Of a stretch of DNA of 58,576 bases, positions 1-53,534 are shown piece by piece. Each line of letters begins with the position of its first letter. Position 1 is the stretch's first letter. The stretch comes from Nanobdellota archaeon (GTDB lineage: Archaea > Nanobdellota > Nanobdellia > Pacearchaeales > GW2011-AR1). The position numbers and the translations under genes are program-made. The DNA lies in the NCBI GenBank assembly GCA_030647965.1, contig JAUSIT010000038.1, positions 1-58,576 on the forward strand, read 5' to 3'. The notes beneath the pieces are model-generated. The model worked only from the letters and a program-made list of their open reading frames with translations. It was not told the origin of the DNA and ran no database searches.

Positions 1-273
1 TTCTTAGTAAACAGAAGAAAAGATTATGAATCAGGCGAGAACAAACATCTTTACGGAGCTGATTTAGACTTACAAAAAGAATTTGACATTAAAAAATTAA
101 AGAAAATGAGAGCTTACAAAGGAATAAGGCATCAATTAGGCCAGCCAGTAAGAGGTCAAAGAACAAAGTCACATTTCAGAAAAGAAAAGAAAAGAAAAGG
201 CGCAGTAGGAGTTAAAAAAGCTAAATCACCTGTTGCTCCAAAAGCTAAAACAGAAACTAAACAAAAAAAATGA
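1..273 (+). CDS. rps13: 30S ribosomal protein S13 (uS13), C-terminal part; 5' end lies outside the window
   Basis: Frame 1 is open from base 1 to TGA 271-273. Translation ...KMRAYKGIRHQLGQPVRGQRTKSHFRKEKK resembles the uS13 C-terminus. It precedes S4-S11-RpoD as in archaeal operons. Confidence 0.8.
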   Translation, partial: FLVNRRKDYESGENKHLYGADLDLQKEFDIKKLKKMRAYKGIRHQLGQPVRGQRTKSHFRKEKKRKGAVGVKKAKSPVAPKAKTETKQKK

Positions 274-282
274 TAAACTAAC

Positions 283-828
283 ATGGGCGATATAAAAAGA
301 AAAAGAAAATTATACAGAAGACCGAAAAAGGCATTTGATAGTGCAAGAATCGAAGAAGAAAATGTAATTATGGATAAATATGGACTTAAAAATAAAAGAG
401 AAATTTGGAAAGCAGAATCATGTGTTTCAAAATTAAGAAAAAGGGCTAAATCTTTAATTTCAAAATCTCAAGACGAAAAAGATAAATTTTTTGAAAAATT
501 AAATAATATGGGATTTGTTATAAATGATATTTCAGATGTTTTAAGTTTAACAAAAGAAAATTGGCTTGATAGAAGATTACAAACTTTTGTTTTTAAAAAA
601 AATTTAGCAAATACTCCTTCACAAGCAAGACAATTAATTGTTCATAAACATATTTCAGTTAATGGAAATATTGTTAATATTCCTTCTTTTATGGTTACTA
701 AAGATTTGGAAAATAAACTTGCTTTAAAAAATATAAATGTAAAACAAAAACCTAAAAAAGAAGAAAAAGTTGAAGAAGAAAATACAGAAGAAGCTGAAGA
801 AGAAAATAGTGAGGAACAAACAGAATGA
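283..828 (+). CDS. rps4: 30S ribosomal protein S4 (uS4, S9e type)
   Basis: N-terminus RKRKLYRRPKKAFD...YGLKNKREIWK and an S4 RNA-binding domain (QLIVHKHISVNG). ATGA overlap with the next gene. Confidence 0.9.
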   Translation: MGDIKRKRKLYRRPKKAFDSARIEEENVIMDKYGLKNKREIWKAESCVSKLRKRAKSLISKSQDEKDKFFEKLNNMGFVINDISDVLSLTKENWLDRRLQTFVFKKNLANTPSQARQLIVHKHISVNGNIVNIPSFMVTKDLENKLALKNINVKQKPKKEEKVEEENTEEAEEENSEEQTE

Positions 829-1211
829 CTAAAGATAGTGAGTTAACTGGAATTGTATATATTTATGCTAGTTTTAATAATACTATTGCTCAATTAACAG
901 ATTTAGCAGGAAATACTATTGGAAGAATTTCTGGCGGACAGATTACAAAACATAGTAGATTAAAAGCAAATCCTACAATTGCTATGTTTATTGCGAAAAA
1001 ACTTGCAGAATATGCAAAAGATTATGGTATTAATTCATTATATGTAAGAATCAAAGGTCAAACAAATTCTACAGGGGCAGGGCCGGGAGCAAACTCTATT
1101 GTAAAAACACTTTCAAAAGAAGGATTTAAAGTTATAAGTATATCTGAAATAACCAAAGTTCCAAGGGGCGGACCAAAGAAAAAAGGAGGCAGAAGAGGAA
1201 GAAGGGTCTAA
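825..1211 (+). CDS. rps11: 30S ribosomal protein S11 (uS11)
   Basis: GIVYIYASFNNTIAQLTDLAGN...GPGANSIVKTL is typical of uS11. Operon position after S4. Confidence 0.9.
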   Translation: MTKDSELTGIVYIYASFNNTIAQLTDLAGNTIGRISGGQITKHSRLKANPTIAMFIAKKLAEYAKDYGINSLYVRIKGQTNSTGAGPGANSIVKTLSKEGFKVISISEITKVPRGGPKKKGGRRGRRV

Positions 1212-1253
1212 AAACCTTTAAAAATAGAGAATAAATAAAAATAATATTAAACA

Positions 1254-1955
1254 ATGATAAAACAAATCGAAAAAACAGATGAAAAATTAATTTTCAGCAC
1301 AGATATGAATTATAGCTTAGCTAATGCCATAAGAAGAACAGTTAATGAAATACCAGTATTGGCTATTGAAGAAGTTGATATTTACAAAAATGATTCTGCA
1401 CTATATGATCAAATTATTTCACATAGAATAGGATTAATACCTTTAAAAAATCAAAAATTAAAAGACGGGCAAATTATTGAATTAAAATTAAGAGTAACTG
1501 GCGGAGATGTTTTAGCAAAAGAATTAAAAGGTCATGCAGAAGTTGTTTATGGAGATATTCCAATTGTTTTACTTGAAAAAGAACAAGAAATTGAATTAGT
1601 TGCAAGAGCAAGATTAGGAAAAGGAAAAGAGCATGCAAAATTTATTCCTGGTTTAGTTTATTATAGAAATTTACATAAAATAGAAATCTCTAAAGACGGA
1701 GAAAAACATAAAGAACTTGTAGAATTATATCCTAAACTTTTTGAATTCGATGGAAAATTAAAAGTTAAAAATGCATGGGAATGTGATTTAGAACAAGATG
1801 ATTTAAAAGATTTCAAAGGAATTACAATAGATCCAACAAATGAACTTGTTTTTTATATTGAATCATGGGGTCAGTTAAACCCAAAAGATATTTTCATAGA
1901 GTCTATTAAAGAACTTAATGACCAGCTATCAGAAGTATCTAAAGCTCTTAAATAA
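1254..1955 (+). CDS. rpoD: DNA-directed RNA polymerase subunit D (Rpo3)
   Basis: LANAIRRTVNEIPVLAIEEVDIYKNDSALYDQIISHRIGLIPL is the RpoD/alpha-like dimerisation motif. Conserved position after S11. Confidence 0.85.
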   Translation: MIKQIEKTDEKLIFSTDMNYSLANAIRRTVNEIPVLAIEEVDIYKNDSALYDQIISHRIGLIPLKNQKLKDGQIIELKLRVTGGDVLAKELKGHAEVVYGDIPIVLLEKEQEIELVARARLGKGKEHAKFIPGLVYYRNLHKIEISKDGEKHKELVELYPKLFEFDGKLKVKNAWECDLEQDDLKDFKGITIDPTNELVFYIESWGQLNPKDIFIESIKELNDQLSEVSKALK

Positions 1956-3015: not shown

Positions 3016-3413
3016 ACTTCATGATAACTTCTGGAAAAAGAAAGACTGCAATAGCAAAAGCTACAATAAAATCTGGAAGTGGGATTATAACAATAAATAA
3101 AAAACCTGTTGAATTTTTTCCAATGCTTGCTCAATTAGAATTAAAAGAACCTTTAATGATCGCAGAAGAAACTCTTGGAAAATTAGAATTTGATATTAAT
3201 GTTAATGTTCATGGTGGCGGAACTGCATCAAGAATTGAAGCTTCAAGATTAGCAATTGCAAGAGCAATATTAAAATTTACAAAAAATGAAAAAATAAAAG
3301 CAGATTATTTAGTTTATGATAGAAATATGCTTGTTGCAGATACAAGAAGAAAAGAAGCATACAAACCAGGAGATTCAAAAGCAAGAGCAAAGAGACAGAC
3401 TTCTTATAGATGA
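3012..3413 (+). CDS. rps9: 30S ribosomal protein S9 (uS9)
   Basis: GKRKTAIAKATIKSGSG...GGGTASRIEASRLAIARA...PGDSKARAKRQTSYR is the uS9 signature, including the C-terminal YR. Confidence 0.9.
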   Translation: MNFMITSGKRKTAIAKATIKSGSGIITINKKPVEFFPMLAQLELKEPLMIAEETLGKLEFDINVNVHGGGTASRIEASRLAIARAILKFTKNEKIKADYLVYDRNMLVADTRRKEAYKPGDSKARAKRQTSYR

Positions 3414-3561
3414 TTATTTTTTAATATATATAATCTTAAAAACCTATTTCAAAAGTTATTCTAATCAGAAAAATCTTCTTATTATTTGTGAGATTTTTGG
3501 GATGATCCAAAATTTAGAATCATAATTATATTTAAATACCTCAAAATAAGATTTTAAATTT

Positions 3562-4194
3562 ATGGACATGATAAAAGCATTATTATTTGATCTTGATGGA
3601 ACATTAATCCATACTTCAGAAGAATATAGGTATAGTATTTTGGAAAAAACTTTAGGAGAATTAGGAACTTCTGCATCTAAAAAAGATATGGATAAATTTT
3701 GGTTTAAATCAGGAAGAGATAGATTAATTACAAATAATTTTCAGGTAGATTCTGATGAATTTTGGGAAATTTTTCAAAAATATGATTATATAGACGCTAA
3801 AAAAAATTTTATTAAACCTTATGAGGATGTTAATTTTATAAAAGAAATGAAAAAAGCTGGATTTAAGATCGGAGTAGTTACTGGAGCTAAAGAAAGTATT
3901 GCTTTTCTTGAATTAGGATTAATAGGAATCGAAAATTTTGATTCAGTTATAGCTGCAGGATATTCTGATATTAAACATAAACCAGATCCAGAAGGAATAA
4001 ATCTTTGTTTAAGTCAACTTAAGATTAATAATAAAGAAGCAGTTTATGTTGGAAATTCTGAAGAAGATATTTTTGCTGCAAGAAATGCAGAAGTTCTTGA
4101 TTTTTTAATAGATAGAAAAGAATGCAAATTTCCAAATTTACATCCTTCTTTTAAAATAAACTCGTTATATGAATTAAAAAATTATATTTTCTAA
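3562..4194 (+). CDS. HAD-superfamily hydrolase (phosphatase-like)
   Basis: HAD motif I, LFDLDGTL, near the N-terminus; later VTGA... and GNSEED motifs. Confidence 0.75.
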   Translation: MDMIKALLFDLDGTLIHTSEEYRYSILEKTLGELGTSASKKDMDKFWFKSGRDRLITNNFQVDSDEFWEIFQKYDYIDAKKNFIKPYEDVNFIKEMKKAGFKIGVVTGAKESIAFLELGLIGIENFDSVIAAGYSDIKHKPDPEGINLCLSQLKINNKEAVYVGNSEEDIFAARNAEVLDFLIDRKECKFPNLHPSFKINSLYELKNYIF

Positions 4195-4197
4195 TTA

Positions 4198-4530
4198 TTA
4201 ATTCCCAGTACCATCTGCCTGTCTTTCAGTATAACCACATTTTTTACATTTGAATAAATAAACATCTGATTCATCGCTATAAGATGCTCCTAAATCAGTA
4301 ACTTCTGATTGGCCATAGCCACATTTAGAGCATTTATGAGGAAATCCTTTTAGATTTTTTTTCTCAACAGCAACACCTTTTCCTAATTTAACTTTTGTTT
4401 CTTTTTCTGAAAAAACTAAATCAGAATGAGTTTCTTTTTTATATCCGCAGCTGCAAACAAGAAATTTTTCTCCATAAATAGTTTCTAATTCCAAAACTTT
4501 CTTACATAATGGGCAAAATTTTAAATGCAT
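4198..4530 (-). CDS. tfs: Transcription factor S / RNA polymerase subunit M-like zinc-ribbon protein
   Basis: N-terminal CPLC...CSCG and C-terminal CSKCG...CKKCG zinc ribbons, with an acidic SDESD loop between the last cysteine pairs. Confidence 0.65.
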   Translation of the reverse strand: MHLKFCPLCKKVLELETIYGEKFLVCSCGYKKETHSDLVFSEKETKVKLGKGVAVEKKNLKGFPHKCSKCGYGQSEVTDLGASYSDESDVYLFKCKKCGYTERQADGTGN

Positions 4531-4531
4531 T

Positions 4532-5059
4532 TTAATCTTTTTTTAGTTTTTCTTTTAATTTTCTCTGAACAGCATAAAATAATTCTTGAGAAATTAAAGA
4601 TTTATGATTACCTTTATTTAGTTTACCTGCAAATTTTATTTCCCCTAAATATGTTCTGTTAGTTAGTATTTTTTTAAGGCCATTAATAGAAAGCCCGTAA
4701 TTTTTTGAAAGAGTATTTAGAGAATATTCTTTTTCTAAAAAAGTTTTGAATAGTGAATGAACTTTTGCTGCATCTTCATTCATTTCTAATTCCCCATTAA
4801 CTACATTATAACCTAAAGGAGCACGAGTCATAAGTTTGCCTTGTTTTGCTTTTTCATCCATTCCTTCTTTTAATCTATCTCCTGTGCTTTGATTATATTT
4901 CCTAAAAGTATCTATTAATTTCCAATCTAATTTTTCAGTTAAATATTTATCAAAATCATCTTGATTGTCCGGAGCAAAATGAGAGCAAACTCTACATAAA
5001 TTTTTCTCAAATTTTTTACACTCTTTTTGATCTTTATAGCTGCATTTTTCACAAACCAT
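4532..5059 (-). CDS. Recombinase-domain protein (serine-recombinase 'Recombinase' domain without a resolvase catalytic domain) with an N-terminal Cys-rich segment
   Basis: RAPLGYNVVNGELEMNEDAAKVHSLFKTFLEKEYSLNTLSKNYGLSINGLKKILTNRTYLGEIKF resembles the recombinase domain of large serine recombinases. No catalytic Ser-domain motifs are visible. Confidence 0.5.
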   Translation of the reverse strand: MVCEKCSYKDQKECKKFEKNLCRVCSHFAPDNQDDFDKYLTEKLDWKLIDTFRKYNQSTGDRLKEGMDEKAKQGKLMTRAPLGYNVVNGELEMNEDAAKVHSLFKTFLEKEYSLNTLSKNYGLSINGLKKILTNRTYLGEIKFAGKLNKGNHKSLISQELFYAVQRKLKEKLKKD

Positions 5060-5127
5060 ATTTATATAAGAAAAAATATAGATTTAAAGTTATCTGATAT
5101 GAAGAAATTTTTTAATAAGAAAATTAA

Positions 5128-5676
5128 TTATCTTGTTTTAAAATAAAAAAAAGCTACAGCAATTCCTGCAATAAATAAAGCTGCTCCAAGAACATTTGAA
5201 GAAGTTTGAGTTAAATCAGAGATAACATTTCCAGTAATATTAGCAGATAAAAAAAATATCCCAGCTACTATTCCTAAAATAGAAGTTATTCCAACCAGAC
5301 CAGTATTATCACTTTTTTGATGCATCCCTAATTTCTTTCTTTCAAAATCATAAACTTCTTTTGCATCTTTACCAAGTTTAGTAAATAAAGTATTATATTG
5401 CTTATCGAGTTTTATAGCTTCTTTTTGTCCTTGTTCGTATAATTTGTCTAATCTCTCTTTAGCATCATAATAATTACCTCGAGCATCCTCATAATCAATC
5501 ATTGTGGTTATTACTCCACGTCCAAAATTACCATAATCATAACGATCATCAGGATTATGCGAACATACACGGTCTAATACACTGTCTACTGCATCAGCTT
5601 TGCGTTCTTTTTTCCTCAAAGCAGATTCATATTTTGCCCTGTGTTCTCTTTTTTTAAATAAATCTAATAAACCCAT
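5128..5676 (-). CDS. Hypothetical membrane-anchored protein
   Basis: Long ORF with two C-terminal hydrophobic segments (GLVGITSILGIVAGIFFL, LGAALFIAGIAVAFFYF). No family recognised. Confidence 0.45.
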   Translation of the reverse strand: MGLLDLFKKREHRAKYESALRKKERKADAVDSVLDRVCSHNPDDRYDYGNFGRGVITTMIDYEDARGNYYDAKERLDKLYEQGQKEAIKLDKQYNTLFTKLGKDAKEVYDFERKKLGMHQKSDNTGLVGITSILGIVAGIFFLSANITGNVISDLTQTSSNVLGAALFIAGIAVAFFYFKTR

Positions 5677-8076: not shown

Positions 8077-8236
8077 AAAAAATCCCCCTAAAAACTACTT
8101 TGGATTTTTTAAATGTCAAGAATTTACGAATTCTTGAGCACAATTCAAAACAAAATTCTCCTTGGAGAATTTTTCAAAGTTTTGGATGCCTCAAACTGGG
8201 AACGACAAATCTATAAGTTACATCCGGTTTGAGCAG
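8077..8236 (+). ncRNA. RNA-C copy 1: candidate structured RNA or repeat made of four consecutive hairpins
   Basis: Collinear with 26336-26510. It contains an HP-A hairpin at 8113-8141 and a terminal helix CAAACTGG/CCGGTTTG that covaries with copy 2. Confidence 0.4.
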
Positions 8237-11712: not shown

Positions 11713-12021
11713 TTAAACAATAAACCGCTCGGGATTCTCTTCTCTAACTTTTTTTAAACATTTAATAAAAGTAGTCATTGTTCCATTACATTCTTCTTTT
11801 AAATATTCTTCAAATTCTTCTTTATTATTTGGAGCAAAATGATGGCAATCTAAACATAAAGTAATTAAATTTTCAAGTTCATCTTTTCCTTGAAAAGTTA
11901 AAGGAATAATGTGGTGGGCTTCTAAAAATTTTTCAGATTTATCTTGAATTTTACATTTTTGACAGGTAAAATCATCTCTTTCAAATGCTTTTTTTCTTAA
12001 GACACTATTTCTTTTCTTCAT
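11713..12021 (-). CDS. HNH endonuclease
   Basis: CQKC...AHHIIP...NLITLCLDCHH is an HNH motif with zinc-binding cysteine pairs. Overlaps the 3' end of the recombinase gene by 17 nt. Confidence 0.75.
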   Translation of the reverse strand: MKKRNSVLRKKAFERDDFTCQKCKIQDKSEKFLEAHHIIPLTFQGKDELENLITLCLDCHHFAPNNKEEFEEYLKEECNGTMTTFIKCLKKVREENPERFIV

Positions 12022-12853
12022 TTTTCATTAAATTATCTAAGGGGGATGAAACTTTTTTCATTTCTTCTGATGAAATATGGGTATAAATTTGAGTTGTTGA
12101 AAGGTCTGCATGGCCTAATAATTCCTGAATCATTCTTATATCTGTTCCTGATTCTAATAAGTGAGTTGCAAAGGAATGTCTTAGTGTATGAGGATGAACA
12201 GATTTTTTTATTCCTGCTTTTTGCGCTACGTTTTGAATAATCTTTTGCATGTTTCTTGAAGATAATTTTCCATTTGGGCCTGTGAAAAGATATTCTTGAT
12301 TGTTTTGTTTTTGTAATTCTGCTTGTTCTTTTAAATTATCTGCCAAGAAATTAGGAATATTAAAATTCCTATCTTTTTTTCCTTTAGCCTGCCTTACATG
12401 ACCTATTTTTTCATCAAAATCCATATCCCTCATTTTTAAATTAATTAATTCTGAAACTCTAAAACCACATGCATAAATTAAAGAGAGCATTAACTTGCTT
12501 TTTTTATTTACGGCCGACTCAAGCAGTTTTCTGACTTCGTCTTTAGATAAAACAACAGGTATTTTTTTCTCTCGTTTTGGTCTTTTTATTCCTGCAGTTA
12601 TATCTTTGTTTAAGAGGTTAGAATAGGCATATTTTACAGCAGCAAGAAACAAGATAGAAGACATAGAAGATTTTTCTGCTAATTTTTCTGCCATGAAAAG
12701 CTTAATATCGTCTTGAGTTATCTCTTCAGGATTTTTCTTGGAAAAATCAATAAGTTTAGAGTTAGAAGAAAGATAGTTTCTAATAGTATGGGGGGAGTTT
12801 TTAGAGATTTTTAGTTCTGTTTCGATTTTTTTTAAGAAAACCTCTTTTTCCAT
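12005..12853 (-). CDS. Tyrosine recombinase, XerA/XerC/XerD-like
   Basis: GFRVSEL...HPHTLRHSFATHLLESGTDIRMIQELLGHADLSTTQIYTH carries the R-H-R-Y catalytic signature. 282 aa, Xer-sized. Confidence 0.85.
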   Translation of the reverse strand: MEKEVFLKKIETELKISKNSPHTIRNYLSSNSKLIDFSKKNPEEITQDDIKLFMAEKLAEKSSMSSILFLAAVKYAYSNLLNKDITAGIKRPKREKKIPVVLSKDEVRKLLESAVNKKSKLMLSLIYACGFRVSELINLKMRDMDFDEKIGHVRQAKGKKDRNFNIPNFLADNLKEQAELQKQNNQEYLFTGPNGKLSSRNMQKIIQNVAQKAGIKKSVHPHTLRHSFATHLLESGTDIRMIQELLGHADLSTTQIYTHISSEEMKKVSSPLDNLMKNEEKK

Positions 12854-12907
12854 GATTTTGATTGTGCGAACTTGTTTAAAAATCTAATGTAATAATTGTA
12901 AAACCAG

Positions 12908-13399
12908 TTAATAGCTTCCTTTAATATCTGTCCTTAATTTCTTTTCTTGTGGGTTAAATCCTTTTTCTCTAAGAAGATTAAACATCTCTTCTTTAAATTG
13001 AAGATTATGAAGCATTTGATGATGATTTGGACATAAGCCTATCAAATTATCTTGAGAATTATTTTTTCTATTTTGATCAAGATGATGTAAATCGACTACT
13101 TTATCAAATCCACAAATAACACATTTTTCTGTGATTTTTTTATAGATTTCATAATCTAAACCATAAAGTTGCATTTGATTTCTAGCTTTTTGATAGTCTA
13201 AAAAATAAGTAGTATTATAACATCCCCCACATAACCCTTTACTTTTTAAAAACATTAATCTTTGACATCTTTTACAAACTTTCTTTTTTCTAGGCCATTT
13301 AAATTTTCTATAACAATTATGACAAATTTCTCCAGTAAATCGATTGTTTTCTTTTCCGCATTTTGGACAAACTTTCCCCTGTAATAATTTTATGGACAT
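12908..13399 (-). CDS. Zinc-finger / HNH nuclease-like protein
   Basis: Several CxxC pairs, then CVICG...DLHHLDQNRKNNSQDNLIGLCPNHHQMLH (HNH pattern). Confidence 0.6.
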   Translation of the reverse strand: MSIKLLQGKVCPKCGKENNRFTGEICHNCYRKFKWPRKKKVCKRCQRLMFLKSKGLCGGCYNTTYFLDYQKARNQMQLYGLDYEIYKKITEKCVICGFDKVVDLHHLDQNRKNNSQDNLIGLCPNHHQMLHNLQFKEEMFNLLREKGFNPQEKKLRTDIKGSY

Positions 13400-13503
13400 A
13401 ACATAATCAGGTACCTGAAGTATATAAATCTTTTGATGACAAAAATGTAACTTTTAAGTAGGTACCCGATAAATTTAAATAGTTAAAAGTTTTTAATCTA
13501 ATT

Positions 13504-13671
13504 ATGAAACTACAAAAACAAAAATCAGATTATAAAAGAGGCTACTCCAAATATGTAGTCGTAATTCCAGAAGATTTGATTAAGAAGGCTGAATTAAAAG
13601 AATCTGATGAATTAGTTGGAGAAGTTGAAAAACATAGAATAATACTTAAGAAAGTTGAAAAAATGGTCTAA
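13504..13671 (+). CDS. AbrB/SpoVT-like small DNA-binding protein (55 aa; not in the supplied ORF track)
   Basis: My translation is MKLQKQKSDYKRGYSKYVVVIPEDLIKKAELKESDELVGEVEKHRIILKKVEKMV. The YVVVIPEDLIKKAELKESD...V pattern resembles the AbrB/MazE looped-hinge-helix fold. Confidence 0.45.
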   Translation: MKLQKQKSDYKRGYSKYVVVIPEDLIKKAELKESDELVGEVEKHRIILKKVEKMV

Positions 13672-13762
13672 ATTGACTAAAACCCTGATTTCTAAACGTT
13701 CTGATAATATAGGTTATCAGAACCTTTTGGGTTATTGAGGGATTTTTGAGAGAAAAATAATA

Positions 13763-14080
13763 TTAATGTCTCCAAAATTGACTATCCCTACCTTTGTCAC
13801 ATTCGTCTTCTGTTTCTGTGCTCTTAGGTAAGCTTTGTGAAAGAACTTCTAAATCCTTAAGATGTTTTTCTAGAGGAATAGGAGTATAATCTAATGTTAA
13901 AAAATATGCTTTAAAATAAACAGTAGGAGGATTTCCTGTGATAATTATGCTCTCTTTTCCGTCAGGTTGATTATTTAAAGGAGTATATTTATTACCTCTT
14001 GAATCTACAAAAGTTCTTCCTTTAATTCCGCCATTTAAAAGATAATATGCTAAATCTTTAGTTAAAGAAGTTTCTGACAT
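13763..14080 (-). CDS. QSxPKST-family small protein, paralog 1 (tail type RDSxF-W/Y-RH)
   Basis: Shares SQSLPKST and the C-terminal tail TEDE..GRDSQFWRH with paralog 3. The N-terminal part is unrelated to the other paralogs. Confidence 0.55.
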   Translation of the reverse strand: MSETSLTKDLAYYLLNGGIKGRTFVDSRGNKYTPLNNQPDGKESIIITGNPPTVYFKAYFLTLDYTPIPLEKHLKDLEVLSQSLPKSTETEDECDKGRDSQFWRH

Positions 14081-14123
14081 ATTTTAAATTAATAAATAGT
14101 ATTTTTAAAGATTATTGTGATTT

Positions 14124-14468
14124 TTAGGCAAAAGGTTTATTTGGATTGCTTGGACCATAAGGATCATTAAAAACAGTTAGTGGTTCAATTGTGCTCTTAG
14201 GTAAGCTTTGTGCAGAAACCTCTAACCCTGATTGTGTTTTTTCAATTTCTTGAATCTCTAAATCAGTAAGACGCTCATAACCAGCTAATTTATCATATCC
14301 TAAGATAATTGTTTCTCTATTATATTTATTATCTTTATTATCTTCTAAAACAAGTACATTAAAACCATGATCATGAATCTCTAAAACTTTTATAATCTTG
14401 AAAGAATGTTTCTTTTGATAATAATTTCCTTTAACTGCATTCGATATATCTTCATATATATTTGTCAT
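14124..14468 (-). CDS. QSxPKST-family small protein, paralog 2 (tail type DPYG)
   Basis: AQSLPKST, then ..FNDPYGPSNP, similar to the paralog 4 tail. Confidence 0.55.
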   Translation of the reverse strand: MTNIYEDISNAVKGNYYQKKHSFKIIKVLEIHDHGFNVLVLEDNKDNKYNRETIILGYDKLAGYERLTDLEIQEIEKTQSGLEVSAQSLPKSTIEPLTVFNDPYGPSNPNKPFA

Positions 14469-14519
14469 GTTATTTTTTAATTAACTTGATTTTTAAATAT
14501 TATTGTGATTTAACATTAA

Positions 14520-14747
14520 TTAATGTCTATAAAATATACTATCTCTTCCTTCTCCACCATACACTTCATCTTCTGTATCTGTGCTCTTAGGTGAGCTTTG
14601 TGCAAGAGGTATATCTTCATAGTGATCTTTGATTAAAACTTCTTGAGGGGTTTTTTCTCCTGAATATCTTATTAACATTTTAATTTCTTCAGGATTGTCA
14701 TTTTTAAAATCAGAAAAACAATGTGCCACCCACACTTTGATTGGCAC
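14520..14747 (-). CDS. QSxPKST-family small protein, paralog 3; probably the 3' part of a gene interrupted by a repeat insertion
   Basis: AQSSPKSTDTEDEVYGGEGRDSIFYRH. The first 11 codons (MPIKVWVAHCF) are encoded by repeat sequence 14714-14747. Confidence 0.45.
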   Translation of the reverse strand: MPIKVWVAHCFSDFKNDNPEEIKMLIRYSGEKTPQEVLIKDHYEDIPLAQSSPKSTDTEDEVYGGEGRDSIFYRH

Positions 14748-14825
14748 TTGTTTTTGGGATGCTCCGAAATTAAAACCAGTAAATTACAACCCAATTCTAA
14801 AGAATTAAGTTTTAATTTCAGACAT
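14714..14825 (-). repeat. HP-A composite repeat: foot hairpin plus second hairpin with a T-run
   Basis: Minus strand reads ATGTCTGAAATTAAAAC...GGTTTTAATTTCGGAGCATCCCAAAAACAAGTGCC...GGCACATTGTTTTT. Homologous to 48989-49114 and 53292-53456. Confidence 0.7.
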
Positions 14826-14934
14826 AACCAATAACCTGATATTGAGCACCATCAAAAATACTATCTATAAACTTTTGATGAATAATAGAATTAATTCCTT
14901 GGTTTTTTATAATATCTTGTAAATTGTCTGTCAT
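14818..14934 (-). pseudogene. 38-codon ORF, probably the 5' part of interrupted paralog 3
   Basis: My translation is MTDNLQDIIKNQGINSIIHQKFIDSIFDGAQYQVIGYV, stopping inside the repeat foot. Conceptual removal of 14714-14825 joins it in frame to 14520-14713. Confidence 0.4.
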
Positions 14935-14942
14935 TTTGATTT

Positions 14943-15458
14943 TTAGTATTTTTTCTCTATTCTTGGGCCATAATCCCTATCTTTTGAATGAGAAGGAACT
15001 TTAGGTCCTATAAATGTTTGATTAGATTCTTCAGATATTTCTAAGTTTAAAGTGGGATTAGAATTTTCAAGGGCTTTTAATAATGATTCAGGATTATATT
15101 CATTAGGGATTCCTAAGTTTAATGTTGACCCATGATTAATAGCATAAGGATCGTCTGCAACAGTAAATGATTTATATGATTTTTCTGTGCTCTTAGGTGA
15201 GCTTTGTTCAGGCCCCAATACTAATTCTGTTAAACCTTGTTCCATCCAGTTAGCTAATTTATGAAGTTCAGAGATCTTTTCTTCTGGATTTTTAATTGAA
15301 ATAAACCTCTTATCATAAAATCCATTCTTGACTATTGGATAAGTTGTTCCATTAGGTTTATGAAGTATAAAATTATTATCTTGTGTTTCCCCTTTATAAA
15401 TTACTATTTCCTCCTGTGGAGTATCAAATTTATAAAAACCTGGTTTGTCTATGGCCAT
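14943..15458 (-). CDS. QSxPKST-family small protein, paralog 4 (long tail, DPYA)
   Basis: EQSSPKST, then ..ADDPYAINHG. The promoter-like ATCACAATAATCTTTAAA box upstream is shared with paralogs 1-3. Confidence 0.55.
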   Translation of the reverse strand: MAIDKPGFYKFDTPQEEIVIYKGETQDNNFILHKPNGTTYPIVKNGFYDKRFISIKNPEEKISELHKLANWMEQGLTELVLGPEQSSPKSTEKSYKSFTVADDPYAINHGSTLNLGIPNEYNPESLLKALENSNPTLNLEISEESNQTFIGPKVPSHSKDRDYGPRIEKKY

Positions 15459-15684
15459 AAATAATTTATTAATTTTGATTATTTAAAGATTATTGTGATT
15501 TAGGAGTGATTTAGGGAAATTTTTGAGTAATTTTTGCCTAGCGGCCTACTTTTTTTAGCAGTGTCTGGGGTTTTGTTCACTTTGGTTAGCAAAGTGCAAT
15601 GATAATAAAAATAAATATGAATAAAATATGAAAAGAAAAATAAAGAAAAGAAAAAAAGAAGTAGAAAAATAATTGCAATTATTT

Positions 15685-15882
15685 TTATCTATTAAATAAA
15701 GCCATTATTAAGCTTACAATTGCGCCTATAACTACAATCCAACCTGCAATTTGAGTTACAATTGTAGGAAGTATTGGGATAGTTAGTGTATTGTATATCA
15801 TTCCAAAGCCAACTGCAAGTGAAACTAAAATACCTGTTAGCCATACAACAATATTCAAAACTCCTGAATCTGCTTTTGCCAT
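15685..15882 (-). CDS. Small integral membrane protein (two TM helices)
   Basis: 65 aa, almost entirely hydrophobic. Strong GGAGGT Shine-Dalgarno-like sequence 7 nt upstream of the ATG. Confidence 0.55.
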   Translation of the reverse strand: MAKADSGVLNIVVWLTGILVSLAVGFGMIYNTLTIPILPTIVTQIAGWIVVIGAIVSLIMALFNR

Positions 15883-15917
15883 ATTTTACCTCCTTTTTTA
15901 ATTTATTTTTTATTAAT

Positions 15918-16208
15918 TTATTCTTTTTTAGTTCCTGGTGCAAAACTTAAAAGAGCAAGTGAAATAAAAAAAGAAAGCCCAAACACAGTAATATATGTTT
16001 TCAAAAGGCTTGGACTATAGCCCAAATATACTCTTTCAACATTTAGATCTAAAATTGAATCAGGATTTAGCGTACAAAAAGTCCATGCATAGTCTGGATT
16101 TGGAACAGAAGGTGCTGTTTGACATGGGATAAAACTTGAAAATAAAGATATTGAAAACACAGCTAGTGCAAAAAATAATGAAGCAATCACTCTATTTTTT
16201 AATTTCAT
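15918..16208 (-). CDS. Membrane/secreted protein with N- and C-terminal hydrophobic segments
   Basis: N-terminal signal-like VIASLFFALAVFSISLF and C-terminal FGLSFFISLALLSF. Confidence 0.45.
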   Translation of the reverse strand: MKLKNRVIASLFFALAVFSISLFSSFIPCQTAPSVPNPDYAWTFCTLNPDSILDLNVERVYLGYSPSLLKTYITVFGLSFFISLALLSFAPGTKKE

Positions 16209-16280
16209 ATTAACTCTTTTTAATAGACTTATTAAGATAGTGTAGTTTATAAATTTTTTGAGTTTTTCTCTGTTAAATCA

Positions 16281-16408
16281 AAAAAACAAAAGGGCACTAC
16301 CTCTTGAAAGGTATGGTTTGTAAAGCCCCTTTGTTTTTAGGATGATCAGAAATTAACGCAGTAAAGTTATATCTACATGATAAATAATGCAGTTTAATTT
16401 CTGACATC
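16281..16408 (-). repeat. HP-A composite repeat
   Basis: Reverse complement reads GATGTCAGAAATTAAACTGCAT...GCGTTAATTTCTGATCATCCTAAAAACAAAGGGGC...GCCCTTTTGTTTTTT. The foot hairpin is near-identical to 48989-49070. Confidence 0.65.
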
Positions 16409-16764: not shown

Positions 16765-17376
16765 ATGTTTGGATTTTTCAAAAAAAACAAAGATGTAAGC
16801 AAATTAAAAGAAGAGGTATATCATTCTTTCAATTCTGTTAAAAAAGATATAAATAAAGTAGGTGAATGGGTTGCGCATTTCGACGCAAAACATAAAAATT
16901 TTGATAAAGAACTAGTTGAATTAAAAGACCAGCTTTATTACATTAGGGAAGATCTAAATGAGATAAAAGACTTTGTTTCTTTCTTTGGACCACAGTTAAC
17001 TAAACAGCCGTTTAAACAGGCACAAACAGGTAGGGATAAACAAACAGCTGTTCAAGCTGTTCAAACACCTGTCCAAACGGCTGTTCAAACAGGCATTTTA
17101 TCTGGTTTAACTGTTATGGAAAGGGCAATTGTGTTTGCTTTGTTAAACTCTGATGTAAAGCTAAGCTATGAAGATTTAGCAGCTGTTTTAGGGAAAGATA
17201 AGAGTACTATCAGGGGCCAGATAAATGGGATAAGACAAAAGAGTGAAGGCTTAATTGAAGAGTCAATTGAACCAAATGGTAAGAAAAGGATCTATATTCC
17301 AGAGAAAATGAAGGAATTTGTGCTCAAAAGTGTAAAAGTGAGAGTTAGACCTGATAAAAGGGCTAAAAAATACTAA
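16765..17376 (+). CDS. Coiled-coil / winged-helix DNA-binding protein
   Basis: N-terminal coiled coil, a QTAVQAVQTPVQTAVQT repeat linker, then C-terminal LTVMERAIVFALLNSDVKLSYEDLAAVLGKDKSTIRGQINGIRQK (wHTH-like). Confidence 0.55.
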   Translation: MFGFFKKNKDVSKLKEEVYHSFNSVKKDINKVGEWVAHFDAKHKNFDKELVELKDQLYYIREDLNEIKDFVSFFGPQLTKQPFKQAQTGRDKQTAVQAVQTPVQTAVQTGILSGLTVMERAIVFALLNSDVKLSYEDLAAVLGKDKSTIRGQINGIRQKSEGLIEESIEPNGKKRIYIPEKMKEFVLKSVKVRVRPDKRAKKY

Positions 17377-22643: not shown

Positions 22644-22760
22644 ATTTACTAATTATTGCACTTCGTGGGAATATTAAGTCGACTAAAAAGTTTTGCTCTT
22701 ATCTTTTTCGTTTCTATTTTAAGAGTAAAACTTTTTGCGTCTCCTAAAGATTTATTAATT
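22644..22760 (+). repeat. EL-B copy 1 (H52 module at 22685-22736)
   Basis: ATTTACTAATTATTGCACTTCGTGGGAATATTAAGTCGAC-T-[AAAAAGTTTTGCTCTT..AAGAGTAAAACTTTTT]-GCGTCTCCT...TTATTAATTATT. Confidence 0.7.
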
Positions 22761-22812
22761 ATTATTCTCTTTACTTATTAGATCATATTAATATATTTAT
22801 ATGTTTAAAATT

Positions 22813-22839
22813 AACAGATAATTTATAAATTCTAAAAAA
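22813..22839 (+). promoter_or_regulatory. Duplicated promoter-like box AACAGATAATTTATAAATTCTAAAAAA, ending 12 nt before the ATG
   Basis: TTTATAAA TATA-like core. A near-identical box sits at 23238-23264 with the same spacing to its ATG. Confidence 0.5.
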
Positions 22840-22850
22840 TTCAACATATT

Positions 22851-23072
22851 ATGAATGAAAAAAAAGTAAGCAATCTTGTTAAAGCATTAGAAGATGTAGG
22901 TATAGAACTTGGCGAGCCTATTGAATGTCAAATAAACCCTGAACACACTAAAGCTGTTACAGAATTTTTAAGAAAAATAGAAGACGCACATAAAAGAACA
23001 AGAAATTCTACAATAAAATTTGATAATTATTCAAATAATTCTTCCTATTATTGCACTTCGTCATTATACTAA
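22851..23072 (+). CDS. Hypothetical small protein; C-terminus encoded by EL-B copy 2
   Basis: 73-aa ORF. The last roughly 10 codons (..SSYYCTSSLY) read through the EL-B backbone TTATTGCACTTCGTCATTATACTAA. Confidence 0.4.
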   Translation: MNEKKVSNLVKALEDVGIELGEPIECQINPEHTKAVTEFLRKIEDAHKRTRNSTIKFDNYSNNSSYYCTSSLY

Positions 23073-23228
23073 GTCGCCTATAGGCTCCTAACTATTTATT
23101 AATTAAAATCCATTGAAAAAGTTTTGCTCTTATCTTTTTCGTTTCTATTTTAAGAGTAAAACTTTTTATCGCTAGACTATTATAAGATTCTTGCTTGTTA
23201 AAGCAAACTAATTCAATGCAGTTGTAAG
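23045..23228 (+). repeat. EL-B copy 2 (H52 module at 23116-23167, downstream position)
   Basis: The backbone stem closes directly as AAGTCGCC-TAT-AGGCTCCT. H52 interrupts the ATTG/TCGCTAGAC hairpin. 3' part: TTGCTTGTTAAAGCAAACTAATTCAATGCAGTTGTA. Confidence 0.7.
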
Positions 23229-23237
23229 TTTAATATT

Positions 23238-23264
23238 AACAAATAATTTATAAATTCTAAAAAA
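23238..23264 (+). promoter_or_regulatory. Duplicated promoter-like box AACAAATAATTTATAAATTCTAAAAAA
   Basis: One mismatch to 22813-22839. Ends 12 nt before ATG 23276. Confidence 0.5.
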
Positions 23265-23275
23265 GTTAGTATTTT

Positions 23276-23584
23276 ATGGCTGATCCAAATCAATTAGATT
23301 TATTTAGAGCAAGTGAAGAACTAAAAAGAGAGCAAAAAGAAGGAAGAAATCTTGCTAAATATACTTCTATAAAATATAAACTTCCTGGAAGAACTATATC
23401 TCCTGCAAAAATGAGTAAAGAAGGTTTACAAAATTGGATTGTAGAGTTTGCTAAACTAAATAATATTGACTTACCCAAGGGATTTTATGGAAGAAATAGA
23501 ACCCAAATATTAGGAATGTATAAAGGAATGCAAGAAACTTATAATTTTAGTGATAGAGATATATTACCTAAAAAGAATTATTAA
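23276..23584 (+). CDS. Hypothetical small basic protein
   Basis: 102-aa ORF behind the duplicated promoter box; no motif recognised. Confidence 0.45.
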   Translation: MADPNQLDLFRASEELKREQKEGRNLAKYTSIKYKLPGRTISPAKMSKEGLQNWIVEFAKLNNIDLPKGFYGRNRTQILGMYKGMQETYNFSDRDILPKKNY

Positions 23585-26335: not shown

Positions 26336-26510
26336 AAAAAATCCCAATCACAGCAAGTTGTGGGGTATTTTTTAAATGTCAAAAATTTACGAATTTTTGA
26401 GCACACTCCAAAACAAAATTCTTCAAGGAGAATTTTTCAAAGTTTTGGATGCCTCCAAATGGGAACGACGAAAATTGTAGCAAGCTAAGAAGTATAAGAC
26501 CCATTTGCAG
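26336..26510 (+). ncRNA. RNA-C copy 2
   Basis: Collinear with 8077-8236. The HP-A hairpin at 26376-26404 carries a compensatory G:C to A:T change. The terminal helix is CAAATGGG/CCCATTTG. Confidence 0.4.
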
Positions 26511-37682: not shown

Positions 37683-37995
37683 ATATTTACTAATTATAGC
37701 ACTTCGTTCTGTTAGAAAGGTTTCATCAGCATTTCTGAGCACTGTCAGGAATTTACATTCCTGAAGCCATCGAGAATTCTTAATTCTTGAGGTCCTAAAA
37801 TTCCAATATTTATATACATGAATTTTTTGATTATAAGAAGTCACCTAGAAAAAGTTTTGCTCTTTTATCTTGCGTTACTTATGCAAGAGCAAAACTTTTT
37901 GCGGTTCCTGATTAGTTATTAATTAATTGTTAAAATTGTCGCGAGACAATCATAATATCTTTGCTTGTTAAAGCAACTATTTCCATGTAAATTGC
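37683..37995 (+). repeat. EL-B copy 3 (H52 at 37849-37900), carrying a nested roughly 125-nt insertion rich in HP-A hairpins
   Basis: The backbone ATTTACTAATTATAGCACTTCGT is interrupted at about 37710-37835 by ..CATTTCTGAGCAC, TGTCAGGAATTTACATTCCTGAAGC and GAGAATTCTTAATTCTTGAGGTCC. It resumes as AAGAAGTCACC-TAG-[H52]-GCGGTTCCT...ATTGTCGCGAGACAAT...TTGCTTGTTAAAGCAA. Confidence 0.7.
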
Positions 37996-38002
37996 TTTTT
38001 TC

Positions 38003-39218: not shown

Positions 39219-39232
39219 ATAATAATCTTTTT

Positions 39233-39283
39233 ATGTCAGAAATGCTGTTAAAGTTGTGGCATTTCTGAGCATCCTAAAAACAA
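39233..39283 (+). repeat. HP-A hairpin between convergent genes
   Basis: ATGTCAGAAATGCTGTTAAAGTTGTGGCATTTCTGAGCATCCTAAAAACAA. Confidence 0.65.
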
Positions 39284-39290
39284 AAAGTAT

Positions 39291-40178
39291 TTATTTTTTA
39301 TAATGTGCCTTTTTGTTTTTCTGATTAATACAAGCTTGTTTTAAGAAATTTAAAGTTAAATCTACTAATTTTTCTCTTTCATTTTCAAAAAAGTCAAAAG
39401 CAGGTTCTGAATTAACTTCTAAAACAAGCCATTTTCCATCTTTTTTTAATAAATCAATGCCGCAAATGTTTATTTTTACTGCTTTGACAACTTTATCTAC
39501 TATTTTTTTTAAATCACTATCTATTTTAAATTTTTTAAATGTTTTTCCATGAACTCCTGTTGCTTTCCAGGTTTTACTTGTTTTAATTGCTGTTTGGACA
39601 ATTTTTTTATTTATTATAGTAATTCTATAAGATGGTGAAAGAACCATTTCTTGAGCAATTATTGGAATTTTTTCAGAGCCTTTTTTCCAGAATTTTTTTA
39701 TGACTCTGACTGCTTGCTCTGGATTTTCTGCTTTTTCAACATATTCTCCCATTGTTCCTACAACTCTTTTTAAAACAACAGGCCAGTGATTAAAATCTTC
39801 TAATTCTTTTTTAGCAATGTTTAGGTTTTCAGATAGTAAAATAGTATTTATTGTAGGGATATTATGCTCTTGACATTTAACATAAAACATCCATTTATCT
39901 TCTGTATAATAGTATAATCTTGAATTATCAATTACTTTTTTTCCAAATTCTTCAATTGTTTTTATATACTCTATAACAAAATCCTCTGCAGTGTTATTAT
40001 ATATTAAATCGCATTTTTTTATTTGTTCTCTAAATTCTTTTTCATCTATTCTTTTAAAAATATTAATTGGAATTAGTTCGATGTTTTTCTTTTTTGCAAG
40101 TTCAAGAAACATTTTTTCTTCTTTTCCAAGATTTTTTCCACTATAAAGAAAACCTATCACACTCTTTTTGCTAGTCAT
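39291..40178 (-). CDS. ATP-grasp ligase, RimK-like
   Basis: Size and pattern (WPVVLKRVVGTMGEYV..., IIAQEMV, VLEVNSEPAF) fit the RimK/ATP-grasp fold. Confidence 0.65.
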   Translation of the reverse strand: MTSKKSVIGFLYSGKNLGKEEKMFLELAKKKNIELIPINIFKRIDEKEFREQIKKCDLIYNNTAEDFVIEYIKTIEEFGKKVIDNSRLYYYTEDKWMFYVKCQEHNIPTINTILLSENLNIAKKELEDFNHWPVVLKRVVGTMGEYVEKAENPEQAVRVIKKFWKKGSEKIPIIAQEMVLSPSYRITIINKKIVQTAIKTSKTWKATGVHGKTFKKFKIDSDLKKIVDKVVKAVKINICGIDLLKKDGKWLVLEVNSEPAFDFFENEREKLVDLTLNFLKQACINQKNKKAHYKK

Positions 40179-40429: not shown

Positions 40430-40445
40430 TGTCTCTATAGATTTT

Positions 40446-48965: not shown

Positions 48966-48988
48966 TCTCTTAATAATTATGTTTTTTA

Positions 48989-49114
48989 ATGTCAGAAATT
49001 AAACTGCATCATTTATGATGTAGACGTAACCTTAGTGCGTTAATTTCTGAGCATCCTAAAAACAAGTGCCAATCAAACCCACACTTTTAAGTGTGGGTGG
49101 CACATTGTTTTTTT
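48989..49114 (+). repeat. HP-A composite repeat (long foot hairpin, second hairpin, T7 run)
   Basis: ATGTCAGAAATTAAACTGCATC...GCGTTAATTTCTGAGCATCCTAAAAACAAGTGCCAATCAAACCCACACTTTTAAGTGTGGGTGGCACATTGTTTTTTT. Confidence 0.7.
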
Positions 49115-49372
49115 GATACAATTAGCTTTTATATTGCTGATTTCATTTGCAGTAGCTTTGGCAAAATTCTTTAAGTCTTTTACATCTTCAGCAGTACTAT
49201 CAAGTTTATGCATTGCCCACCCCGCTAAATATACTACACCAAAAAGAGGGGCATATTCTAATAATAATGGTGTATTAATAACTCCTAGGGTTTTTAATAT
49301 AATCCAGATTAAAATTCCTCCTAAAACAACCCATGCCAATATATCCCAGGCATTTATTCCTCTTTTATTCAT
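49073..49372 (-). CDS. Small membrane protein; C-terminus encoded by repeat sequence
   Basis: Two TM helices. The last roughly 14 codons (KKTMCHPHLKVWV) lie in the second hairpin of the repeat at 49073-49114. Confidence 0.45.
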   Translation of the reverse strand: MNKRGINAWDILAWVVLGGILIWIILKTLGVINTPLLLEYAPLFGVVYLAGWAMHKLDSTAEDVKDLKNFAKATANEISNIKANCIKKTMCHPHLKVWV

Positions 49373-52951: not shown

Positions 52952-53383
52952 TTGGAATATAATATTTTAATGAATGAAGACATTAAAGAAATTGATGAAA
53001 AGGGGTTTGATTATTTAGTAGATGATATTTTTAAAGGTCTTGGCTTAGTAAAAAAGCATGAGCGTTTTGTTGATGGAATAAATATAATTTTAAAAAATGG
53101 AAATCCTGAATTAGGGAGATATGTAATGGATAAATTAAATTTAAGAATGAAAAGTGAAATGCTTTTTGATTCGTTTGATATCTCTCTTTCTGACAAGATT
53201 TTAAAAGAACAGGACAAAACAAATTTTTATACAATTGATTTAGATTATTTTTTTATGAAATATTTAAGTGACGAGCCTATTAAAAATTATTATGTCCGAA
53301 ATTTGGTTAAAACCGCACCCTTTAGGGTGCTGAATTTCGGAGCATGTCAAGATTTTACAATCTTGAGCACCATCAAGAATTAA
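52952..53383 (+). CDS. Hypothetical protein (TTG start in the track; C-terminus runs into repeats)
   Basis: The last roughly 30 codons (..YVRNLVKTAPFRVLNFGACQDFTILSTIKN) are encoded by the HP-A triple hairpin from 53292 onward. Confidence 0.3.
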   Translation: MEYNILMNEDIKEIDEKGFDYLVDDIFKGLGLVKKHERFVDGINIILKNGNPELGRYVMDKLNLRMKSEMLFDSFDISLSDKILKEQDKTNFYTIDLDYFFMKYLSDEPIKNYYVRNLVKTAPFRVLNFGACQDFTILSTIKN

Positions 53384-53456
53384 TAATTCTTGAGGTCCGA
53401 AAAACAAGTGCCAATCAAACCCACACTTTTAAGGGTGGGTGGCACATTGTTTTTTT
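53292..53456 (+). repeat. HP-A composite: three consecutive foot hairpins, second hairpin, T7 run
   Basis: ATGTCCGAAATT..AATTTCGGAGCAT, then GTCAAGATTTTACAATCTTGAGCAC, then ATCAAGAATTAATAATTCTTGAGGTCC, then GAAAAACAAGTGCCAATCAAACCCACACTTTTAAGGGTGGGTGGCACATTGTTTTTTT. Confidence 0.7.
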
Positions 53457-53534
53457 GATAATAGACATTAAATTGATTATATACTTTTAAGTACATATAG
53501 GTTTATAAAATAAAAGAGTTTATTTTGATAGAAG

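Follow-up and report, generated by a model that had tools for sequence, protein, structure and literature searches.

Background

Rickettsia palindromic elements (RPEs; Ogata et al. 2000, summarised in PMC10969869) are multicopy units of ~100–150 nt that lie inside protein genes and keep one reading frame open, at which the host protein gains an insert of ~30–50 aa. Among archaea, transposable elements of the miniature inverted-repeat kind (MITEs) were listed in a 2024 review for Sulfolobus, Halobacterium, Haloquadratum, Desulfurococcus and 'several other' genomes (PMC10969869). Here we describe a two-hairpin repeat, referred to as the HP-A unit, which lies between the two parts of an apparently split small gene on a contig of a Nanobdellota archaeon (JAUSIT010000038.1, 58,576 nt; the whole of this stretch is referred to as the window). 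By its sequence features, the element can be likened to a MITE or to an RPE, and we consider it quite probable that it split a small accessory gene, which was inactivated by plain insertion.

The likeness to RPEs is one of features, taken from their description, no sequence relationship being expected across domains, and lies in the 44-aa in-frame insert that the element gives in two genes of other genomes (loci L114 and L068). The element differs from RPEs in its host, a DPANN archaeon, and the copy in the split gene is in sense orientation, gives a stop and interrupts the gene rather than extending it. As with MITEs, it is small, noncoding and multicopy, with near-identical copies (in the metagenome-assembled genome (MAG) C20_maxbin.123), filled and empty homologous sites and apparent gene inactivation. 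It differs from them in that it shows no target-site duplication, its terminal inverted repeat is weak and offset, and no cognate insertion sequence was found; it is also modular, with conserved hairpin feet, variable or nested tops and mosaic copies.

The palindrome-associated elements derived from IS200/IS605 (PATEs) and the REP/RAYT systems have end hairpins but neither terminal inverted repeats nor target-site duplications, and transpose as single strands guided by their hairpins. The HP-A unit resembles them in its subterminal hairpins, in the lack of target-site duplications and of any but a weak terminal inverted repeat and in its T-rich conserved 5′ flank, whereas its two hairpin feet are unlike each other. 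The insertion-target signal of the element is a T at position −2 (95%) in a T-rich context, with no specific tetra- or pentanucleotide seen.

Terminator-like repeats are represented by SPRITE of S. pneumoniae and the Correia elements of Neisseria (see also PMC10969869). The second module of our element is similar to these as it reads as a hairpin followed by oligo-T, and most copies are intergenic. Termination in archaea needs oligo-T and not a hairpin. A terminator role of the second module is predicted from its sequence. Furthermore, bypass inserts, as in phage T4 gene 60 and the 'byp' elements of Magnusiomyces mitochondria, measure about 27–55 nt, known translational bypass gaps being ~50 nt, and archaeal bulge-helix-bulge introns occur in mRNA (cbf5). 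The copy described here is comparable in being a structured insert in an open reading frame (ORF) of an AT-rich genome, with a stop at its 5′ edge and with the frame restored on its removal; it differs in its length of 118 nt, in having no matching codons and no bulge-helix-bulge, and in that the element is mostly intergenic. We found no paper that links MITEs or palindromic elements to DPANN, Woesearchaeota or Nanoarchaeota in our literature coverage, which was incomplete, and the family is apparently undescribed and widespread in DPANN.

The putative split gene and its uninterrupted homolog

As described in the initial annotation and seen in the ORF list, two minus-strand ORFs meet within the repeat. 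The first (14934-14818) encodes 38 aa, MTDNLQ...QYQVIGYV*, and stops within the repeat foot ATGTCTGA, its TGA being at 14818-14820. The second (14520-14747) encodes 75 aa from a GTG start within the repeat and does begin with repeat codons, 13 of them and not 11 as first counted. According to the ORF list, and for the second part also the reconstruction, the native sequence consists of an N-terminal remnant at 14827..14934 (minus strand; 36 codons, MTDNLQ...QYQVIG) and a C-terminal remnant at 14520..14708 (minus strand; 62 codons, FKNDNPEE...IFYRH, and a stop).

The inserted unit between them was located at 14709..14826 (minus strand; 118 nt). It reads T+ATGTCTGAAATTAAAA, a hairpin, TTAATTTCGGAGCATCC-CAAAAACAAG, a second, truncated hairpin and CATTGTTTTTCTGAT, and is inserted in sense orientation between codon 36 (GGT) and the next TTT. 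Removal of 14826-14709 gives a single ORF of 98 aa, MTDNL...QYQVIG|FKNDNPEE...IFYRH, with ..QYQVIGFKNDNPEE.. as the junction-spanning peptide; the predicted element-free junction at this site is GGT|TTTAAAAATGAC, and the empty allele ...CAGGTTATTGGT|TTTAAAAATGACAAT.... The unit was initially delimited as 112 nt (14825-14714), with ..QYQVIG-S- at the rebuilt junction. The joining of the frames stands, 118 and 112 both being 1 mod 3, whereas the extent had to be corrected after comparison with 77 full copies, and the residues read ..VIG|FKND.. instead of ..VIG-S-DFKND.., since excision of 112 nt leaves two element-encoded residues (S and D).

With the fused sequence as query, a phmmer search of 1.84 billion cluster representatives returned P0004, a 78-aa protein aligned to residues 5-73 of the query, i.e. 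across the junction (E 3.8e-5). Beside P0004, the matches were the window's own two fragments; a further candidate, the 1,215-aa coiled-coil repeat protein P0003, was rejected as spurious, its match being of low complexity and restricted to residues 45-76. P0004 is a complete single gene on three independent contigs (ENA, JGI and Logan). Both halves match it separately and in colinear order: the 38-aa ORF alone is 41% identical to P0004 residues 3-34 (pairwise E 3e-8), and the downstream ORF (IRYSGEKTPQEVLIKDHYEDIPL) is 61% identical to residues 56-78 (pairwise E 1e-7). The P0004 locus (L002) is also syntenic with the window, as a divergent gene for a ~200-aa helix-turn-helix (HTH) protein adjoins it, 49% identical to that at 16765-17376 (E 7e-65). 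Because P0004 is uninterrupted, matches both halves in order and lies in a syntenic locus, sequence comparison identifies the two ORFs as halves of one ancestral gene. The search for an uninterrupted homolog that had been suggested thus yielded a single gene, and the proposal that one gene was split by the repeat, with excision restoring the ORF, is borne out by it.

It had been cautioned that the agreement of the frames alone is weak, and rightly so, as abutting open frames, long on both sides, are also found at 5 of 76 other copies; the split rises above chance because the homology of P0004 spans the junction. That the two ORFs were never one gene, being independent small genes at the flanks of an intergenic repeat, is highly improbable. 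Such an arrangement would agree with those five copies and with all other copies in the window, which are intergenic or merely touch gene ends, but P0004 covers both ORFs in one chain and in order, and in the fused protein the QSxPKST motif comes 72 aa after the start, against 82–86 aa in the paralogs but only ~26–49 aa if the ORFs are left unfused.

The paralogs mentioned here are the other members of a minus-strand array of four small genes (P4, the split gene, P2 and P1, in this order). P4 (14943..15458, minus strand) encodes 171 aa with QSSPKST, and its stop lies 8 nt before the ATG of the split gene; P2 (14124..14468, minus strand) encodes 114 aa and P1 (13763..14080, minus strand) 105 aa, both with QSLPKST. 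The product of ~100 aa was initially thought to be similar to P1 and P2. Its size, 98 aa, fits, but the similarity is limited to the motif in P2 and to the motif and tail in P1 (TEDE..GRDS.F.RH; E 1e-9, last 40 aa only), and no significant similarity was detected between the N-terminal domains of the array paralogs and the split gene. As P2 and P4 share the motif only and P1 the motif and tail only, the paralogs are uninformative on homology across the junction.

A misjoined repeat copy in the assembly is the least probable of the explanations that we weighed. The family does break assemblies elsewhere, with copies at contig ends, and a Logan contig ends in the copy at 16.3 kb. Nevertheless, an independent Logan assembly (SRR13727527) is 100% identical to the window over 12725-16360, 3,636 nt across the site, and the copy in the split gene has changes of its own, its longest exact match elsewhere in the window being 24 nt, which is below typical assembler k-mers.

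Structure, boundaries and distribution of the element

To set the boundaries, we compared 77 full copies, which come from ~25 MAGs of Nanoarchaeota, Woesearchaeota and Pacearchaeota. The family unit is W+ATGTC...TGAT, with the conserved block ending in ...CTGAT/TGAT across the full copies. The base at −1 (A or T, before ATGTC) was counted as part of the element because it tracks the subfamily; at −2, T is present in 72 of 76 copies, whatever the subfamily, and the 3′ flank shows a weak T bias at +2. The in-frame and the frame-restoring cases described below fix the inserted length as the conserved block plus 1 nt. No target-site duplication was found at the copies, as the 3′ flank has no conserved base matching the left flank, with an ambiguity of one T at most. 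The two ends, ATGTCAGAAA... and ...TTTCTGAT, have only AT(GT)CAGAAA in common, with a 2-nt offset, and thus form a weak terminal inverted repeat; the inverted repeats of the element are internal (the hairpin feet) and not terminal.

The family consensus is T-W-ATGTCAGAAATTAAA [hairpin] TTAATTTCTGAGCATCC-YAAAAACAAG [hairpin] ATTGTTTTTYTGAT. Hairpin feet are conserved across species, while their tops differ and covary (CCACATC/GATGTGG, CTGCATC/GATGCAG, CCTCATC/GATGAGG and others). Full copies range from 63 nt, in units at which the tops are absent, to 227 nt in those with nested extra hairpins; the element is small (<500 bp) and contains no transposase ORF. Full copies fold as two adjacent hairpins, much more stably than shuffled controls, with z = −2.8 for the copy in the split gene and −6.6 and −4.8 for two others. 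The second module, AAAAACAA-hairpin-TTGTTTTT, reads as a hairpin with oligo-T on both strands.

About 10 copies or fragments of the element were detected in the 58.6-kb window. Its 23-nt core, TTTCGGAGCATCCCAAAAACAAG, has 4 matches there versus 0.00 expected, that of the split-gene copy being at 14747-14769. The split-gene copy lacks ~13 nt of the second hairpin, a deletion that it does not share with the others, and otherwise aligns end to end with copies from other genomes. Another full copy is intergenic (16277..16408, minus strand) and a short one, also full, lies between convergent genes (39232..39325, plus strand). The best-preserved copy of the window, which forms the two hairpins with z = −6.6, is intergenic (48988..49117, plus strand), and a copy at 53291..53459 (plus strand) has extra hairpins in the linker.

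We scanned GTDB species genomes for the core ATTTCNGAGCATCCNAAAAACAA and obtained at least 114 stretches. Among the matches listed, all but one were in DPANN MAGs (~25 assemblies), confined to Nanoarchaeota, Woesearchaeota and Pacearchaeota; the remaining one, in Bacteroidales, was rejected as a chance 23-mer without the feet, in sequence of 46% GC. In the MAG C20_maxbin.123 there are dozens of near-identical copies, many at contig ends, a pattern that we read from the sequences as the signature of a recent burst. DPANN genomes are tiny and selfish DNA is thought to be scarce in them; yet the element is present in ~25 species-level MAGs, with dozens of copies in one.

Of 74 copies, 38 fold better as the sense strand than as its complement, and the counts of G.U pairs are 102 and 92, i.e. 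no bias was seen. Because neither folding nor G.U pairs show a strand bias, the unit is taken as a DNA-level palindromic element and not as a strand-specific RNA gene. In agreement, the only window match at the gathering score in Rfam 15 was one tRNA, which leaves the element without a family, and a permissive Rfam search gave at best 26.6 bits against a threshold of 55, with unrelated leader RNAs, which is chance level. Box C/D or K-turn RNA (ATGTCAGA.../...CTGA), H/ACA RNA, hammerhead ribozyme and attC were considered as identities of the unit and rejected on inspection of boxes and folds, because the foot pairs perfectly into a 10-bp Watson-Crick stem and neither a CUGANGA core nor RYYYAAC/GTTRRRY sites are present.

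Insertions of the element into other genes

Copies of the element were identified within genes of other genomes, in both orientations. In L114 (JACOYM010000026.1, Pacearchaeota), the diphthine synthase (Dph5) gene at 116-1000 (plus strand; PDB 3i4t, E 2.8e-34) contains a 132-nt antisense unit that is read through in frame as a 44-aa insert. A nucleoside-deoxyribosyltransferase-like gene in L068 (CAYMCA010000023.1, Woesearchaeota; 1204-1887, plus strand) also contains a 132-nt antisense unit, in the same frame and with the same 44-aa peptide, NQKNNVPPHL.RCGLQGHLFLGCSEIKSSKLRP.SKECG.NFGH. This suggests that the antisense copies are translated as an in-frame peptide of the host protein. Such in-frame cases are rare (2 of 77 full copies), and a search with the 44-aa peptide found 3 short ORFs only.

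In L043 (JAUYDD010000211.1, from the MAG C20_maxbin.123), a sense copy of 161 nt at 534-694, in minus-strand orientation, interrupts a gene for glucokinase. Excision of exactly W+ATGTC...TGAT gives one ORF that matches Pfam Glucokinase over positions 1-312 of 314 in a single stretch (E 2.3e-45). Both glucokinase and diphthine synthase carry a unit that is absent from their families, i.e. filled versus empty homologous sites. Two weaker cases are a DUF6036 nucleotidyltransferase in L083, which fits the boundary rule, and an eL24-like (FCS zinc-finger) gene in L115 (JAHJSH010000029.1), which has a 93-nt mini copy out of frame at 1334-1426, in antisense orientation. The match of the latter to archaeal L24e is marginal (E 0.01-0.05), yet it crosses the junction, and the gene fits the boundary rule weakly. 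An ATG inside the L115 element could restart the C-terminal part of the eL24-like protein, and the locus is worth a closer look if this gene is the sole eL24 of that genome.

Within the window, the element contributes to the ends of neighbouring genes. The copy at 39232..39325 gives the RimK-like ORF 39291-40178 (minus strand) its last ~11 codons and stop, and this tail (39291-39325) reads the antisense frame, NQKN.., that is also used in the Dph5 insert. The left part of the copy at 53291..53459 (53291-53383) forms the last ~30 codons of the ORF 52952-53383 (plus strand), and a degenerate copy at 3.5 kb overlaps the ATG of a HAD-like gene at 3562 (3562-3570).

The claim of the initial annotation that the repeat is, or was, mobile is supported by these sequence comparisons, because the split gene has an uninterrupted syntenic homolog and because family members were independently inserted into genes of other genomes. 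The repeats of the window can therefore be described as a mobile-element family with defined ends, and the split gene as one caught shortly after its disruption. The element breaks assemblies, knocks out accessory and metabolic genes, and donates C-terminal codons and stops; at least 2 conserved proteins, diphthine synthase among them, contain it in frame. Gene callers are likely to mis-annotate the genes that are hit, calling them fragments or giving their proteins an insert that nothing explains. With a model of the element, annotators could mask it; such a model would also provide a marker for strain-level population studies and a handle on the mobilising enzyme.

The initial annotation had offered removal at the RNA level as an alternative to mobility, and this was not upheld. 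More generally, the element might be removed from the mRNA like an intron or skipped by the ribosome (bypass), so that a protein of ~98 aa is still made. Excision restores the frame here, in the L043 glucokinase and possibly in the L115 eL24-like gene, and the stop, as in known bypass elements, lies within a strong hairpin, close to its edge; against this, any recent clean insertion gives exact restoration. Moreover, the antisense copies in L114 and L068 occupy the one open antisense frame, which points to selection for translation through the element, and the folding energies and G.U pairs have no strand bias. The predicted folds place the two ends in different helices, the 5′ one being paired to the linker CAU and the 3′ one to AUC; the internal loops measure 1x2 and 2x2 nt, and no bulge-helix-bulge motif is formed. 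Bypass would also need a landing codon, and no GUC, UAU or GGU is present at ..CAU UGU UUU UCU GAU UUU AAA.. for the take-off context GGU UAU GUC UGA, while the gap of 118 nt is far above the ~50 nt of known bypasses. The flanking exons, finally, differ at every insertion site. We therefore regard removal or bypass as very unlikely, and the same small chance is given to the wider claim that the sense or out-of-frame copies in genes (the small gene, the C20_maxbin.123 glucokinase and possibly the L115 eL24-like gene) are not knockouts, with the unit removed or skipped. If this were true, the element would be a mobile intron-like or bypass element of DPANN archaea, which colonises coding sequence at little cost.

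Likely fate of the interrupted gene

Insertion followed by loss of function remains the explanation that we favour. A non-autonomous palindromic mobile element would have entered a previously intact accessory gene of ~98 codons, in sense orientation and next to a T. In this frame a stop would be met two codons into the element (TAT GTC TGA), and the consensus A in place of T would still give TAA two codons later. The second module, with its AAAAACAA/TTGTTTTT hairpin, would add an oligo-T, terminator-like signal between the halves. The only product would then be a 38-aa stub, while the C-terminal 62 codons, which have no copy of the promoter-like box seen before other array genes, would be left without a proper start. 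Because of the early stop, the oligo-T hairpin between the halves and the missing promoter-like box of the C-terminal half, the gene is most likely inactive. Perhaps the loss was tolerated since the gene belongs to a variable array, whose several small genes evolve fast. The event itself is an ordinary insertional knockout of an accessory gene, the value of which is in the clean evidence that it gives for the mobility of the family.

By analogy, mobilisation may resemble that by single-strand (IS200/IS605-type) transposases, because the element has hairpins near its ends and a T-rich sequence on its 5′ side, shows no duplication of the target and has only a weak terminal inverted repeat. No Y1 HUH transposase was noticed among the window ORFs of at least 180 aa, part of which were run against Pfam.

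Gene fission, in which the insertion is real and the gene alive, either as two pieces or with a C-terminal protein restarted at GTG 14747 or at the ATG of ..KMLIRY.., is unlikely, although it is the best placed of the rival explanations. Both halves are still open, and the element does donate coding sequence elsewhere (39291-40178 and 52952-53383, with a possible internal ATG in L115). However, the homolog P0004 is a single 78-aa chain, the C-terminal half lacks a promoter-like box and an oligo-T hairpin module stands between the halves. The junction would also fall inside a predicted beta-strand of the only structured part of the rebuilt protein, in a model of low confidence (pLDDT 53) that was too poor for a fold search.

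Several observations weigh against the explanation that we favour. Both halves are free of stops and frameshifts; in random sequence of the same composition a given frame stays open over 36 codons with a probability of 0.056 and over 62 codons with one of 0.007. Open halves fit a recent insertion, but they equally fit continued use of one or both of them. The inserted copy has itself already decayed, by its ~13-nt deletion and by substitutions, so that the insertion is not brand new. Either there was time for some decay of the element but little for erosion of the ORFs, or one of the halves is still in use. As for the homolog, P0004 is just 37-43% identical, is 6-8 aa longer around the junction, ends one residue short of the QSxPKST position and lacks that tail. 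The sequence before insertion and the clean excision are deduced from other family members and not from the locus itself.

The negative searches point the same way. No close intact ortholog was present in 5.8e9 protein clusters, and the empty-site junction, with a gap of 0-14 nt allowed, had 0 matches in JGI metagenome contigs. The element core had 0 matches in viral contigs, and no HP foot-ORF-A foot arrangement was seen in 782 kb of loci, which is a weak negative as these were 8-kb pieces per genome. P0004 was the only homolog found in billions of public proteins; word-indexed protein searches with the fused protein, a P3+P0004 profile and the 44-aa peptide returned only the window fragment, P0004 and three short ORFs. 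It had been stated initially that the lack of any homolog fused to a QSxPKST tail would speak against the split. Taken literally this is what was found, as P0004 is tailless and no homolog with the tail was found in the searched protein collections; the split is nevertheless unharmed, since P0004 spans the junction.

The small-gene array and its conserved DNA block

The QSxPKST motif, on which a 'QSxPKST family' had been proposed, is indeed common to the four array genes, but what is conserved is mainly a block of DNA, which in related loci lies between genes. The block, (AC)AAAGCTYACCTAAGAGCACA (20-23 nt), is identical in the four genes even at synonymous sites; the DNA encoding QS[LS]PKST is ACAAAGCTYACCTAAGAGCACA, and the array motif can also be given as ACAAAGCTYACCTAAGWGMACA. 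In the split gene it is located at 14580..14599 (minus strand; AAAGCTCACCTAAGAGCACA, read as QSSPKST) and in the other array genes at 13817-13836, 14190-14209 and 15186-15205 (minus strand), which makes 4 exact or near-exact copies in the window versus 0.01 expected. Only P1 and the split gene have a tail in common as well.

Outside the window, the block or a related version of it was found at 132-151 in L121, at 4768-4795 and 5280-5299 in L123, and at 4760-4785 and 5458-5482 in L002. It is in frame as QS[SL]PKST in the metagenome contigs L121 and L123 (28% and 34% GC), of which L123 is syntenic with the window locus. In L002 and L123, closely related and partly palindromic versions are intergenic, at ~100-145 nt upstream of small genes; another lies upstream of P4 (~15574-15599, minus strand). 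Judged by sequence and placement, the block resembles a cis element (operator or recombination site) that belongs to a variable array of small genes, and not a protein motif. In place of a 'QSxPKST family', one would then speak of small ORFs that are unrelated, stand in a cassette-like array and have the cis element within their reading frames. This leaves the conclusion on the split gene unchanged, although it changes what was split.

A second box, ATCACAATAATNTTTAAA (= ATCACAATAATNTTTAAAWA), precedes the ATG of P4, P2 and P1, and of genes in L121 and L002, by 25-35 nt. In the window it is at ~15490-15510, ~14495-14515 and ~14105-14125 (minus strand), and in L002 at ~4840-4860 and ~5500-5520; it is probably the common archaeal promoter (TATA box and B recognition element). 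The split gene, which starts 8 nt after the P4 stop, has no such box.

The array is flanked on one side by a XerC/D-type integrase (12005-12853), an HNH/zinc-ribbon gene (12908-13399) and a MazE/AbrB-like gene (13504-13671). On the opposite side, the ~200-aa HTH protein mentioned above (coiled coil, AVQT repeats and a C-terminal HTH) adjoins the array in all three related loci, at 16765-17376 (plus strand) in the window, at 3832-4440 (minus strand) in L002 and at 3213-3884 (minus strand) in L123, with 49% identity between the window and L002. We consider it a candidate regulator of the array, judging from its conserved position.

In L002, P0004 overlaps by 4 nt an 84-aa gene (5112-5366, plus strand) with a PD-(D/E)xK-like motif (PDIV...DIYLIEYK). 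This gene had no Pfam match and no counterpart in the window array. Together with P0004 it may form a two-gene cassette, either toxin/antitoxin-like or with a nuclease.

Other features of the window

The window is an archaeal contig of 27% GC. Its genes encode the PolD small and large subunits, Orc1/Cdc6, RNA polymerase subunit D, ribosomal protein S4, an Lhr-type helicase and two tRNAs.

A second, unrelated family of interspersed repeats was also noted. It consists of a hairpin, AAAAAGTTTTGCTCTT...AAGAGCAAAACTTTTT, with flanking conserved blocks, in 5-6 copies that are mostly intergenic (22645-22900, 23040-23320, 37814-38000, 40247-40432, 46745-46797 and 49445-49640). In addition, a 106-nt pair, at 8104-8209 and 26367-26472, is 91% identical.

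The ORF of the PolD large subunit (31106-36064, plus strand) encodes 1,652 aa. This is several hundred residues above what we take to be the usual length, and by eye an inserted block within it looks like an intein with a homing-endonuclease domain.

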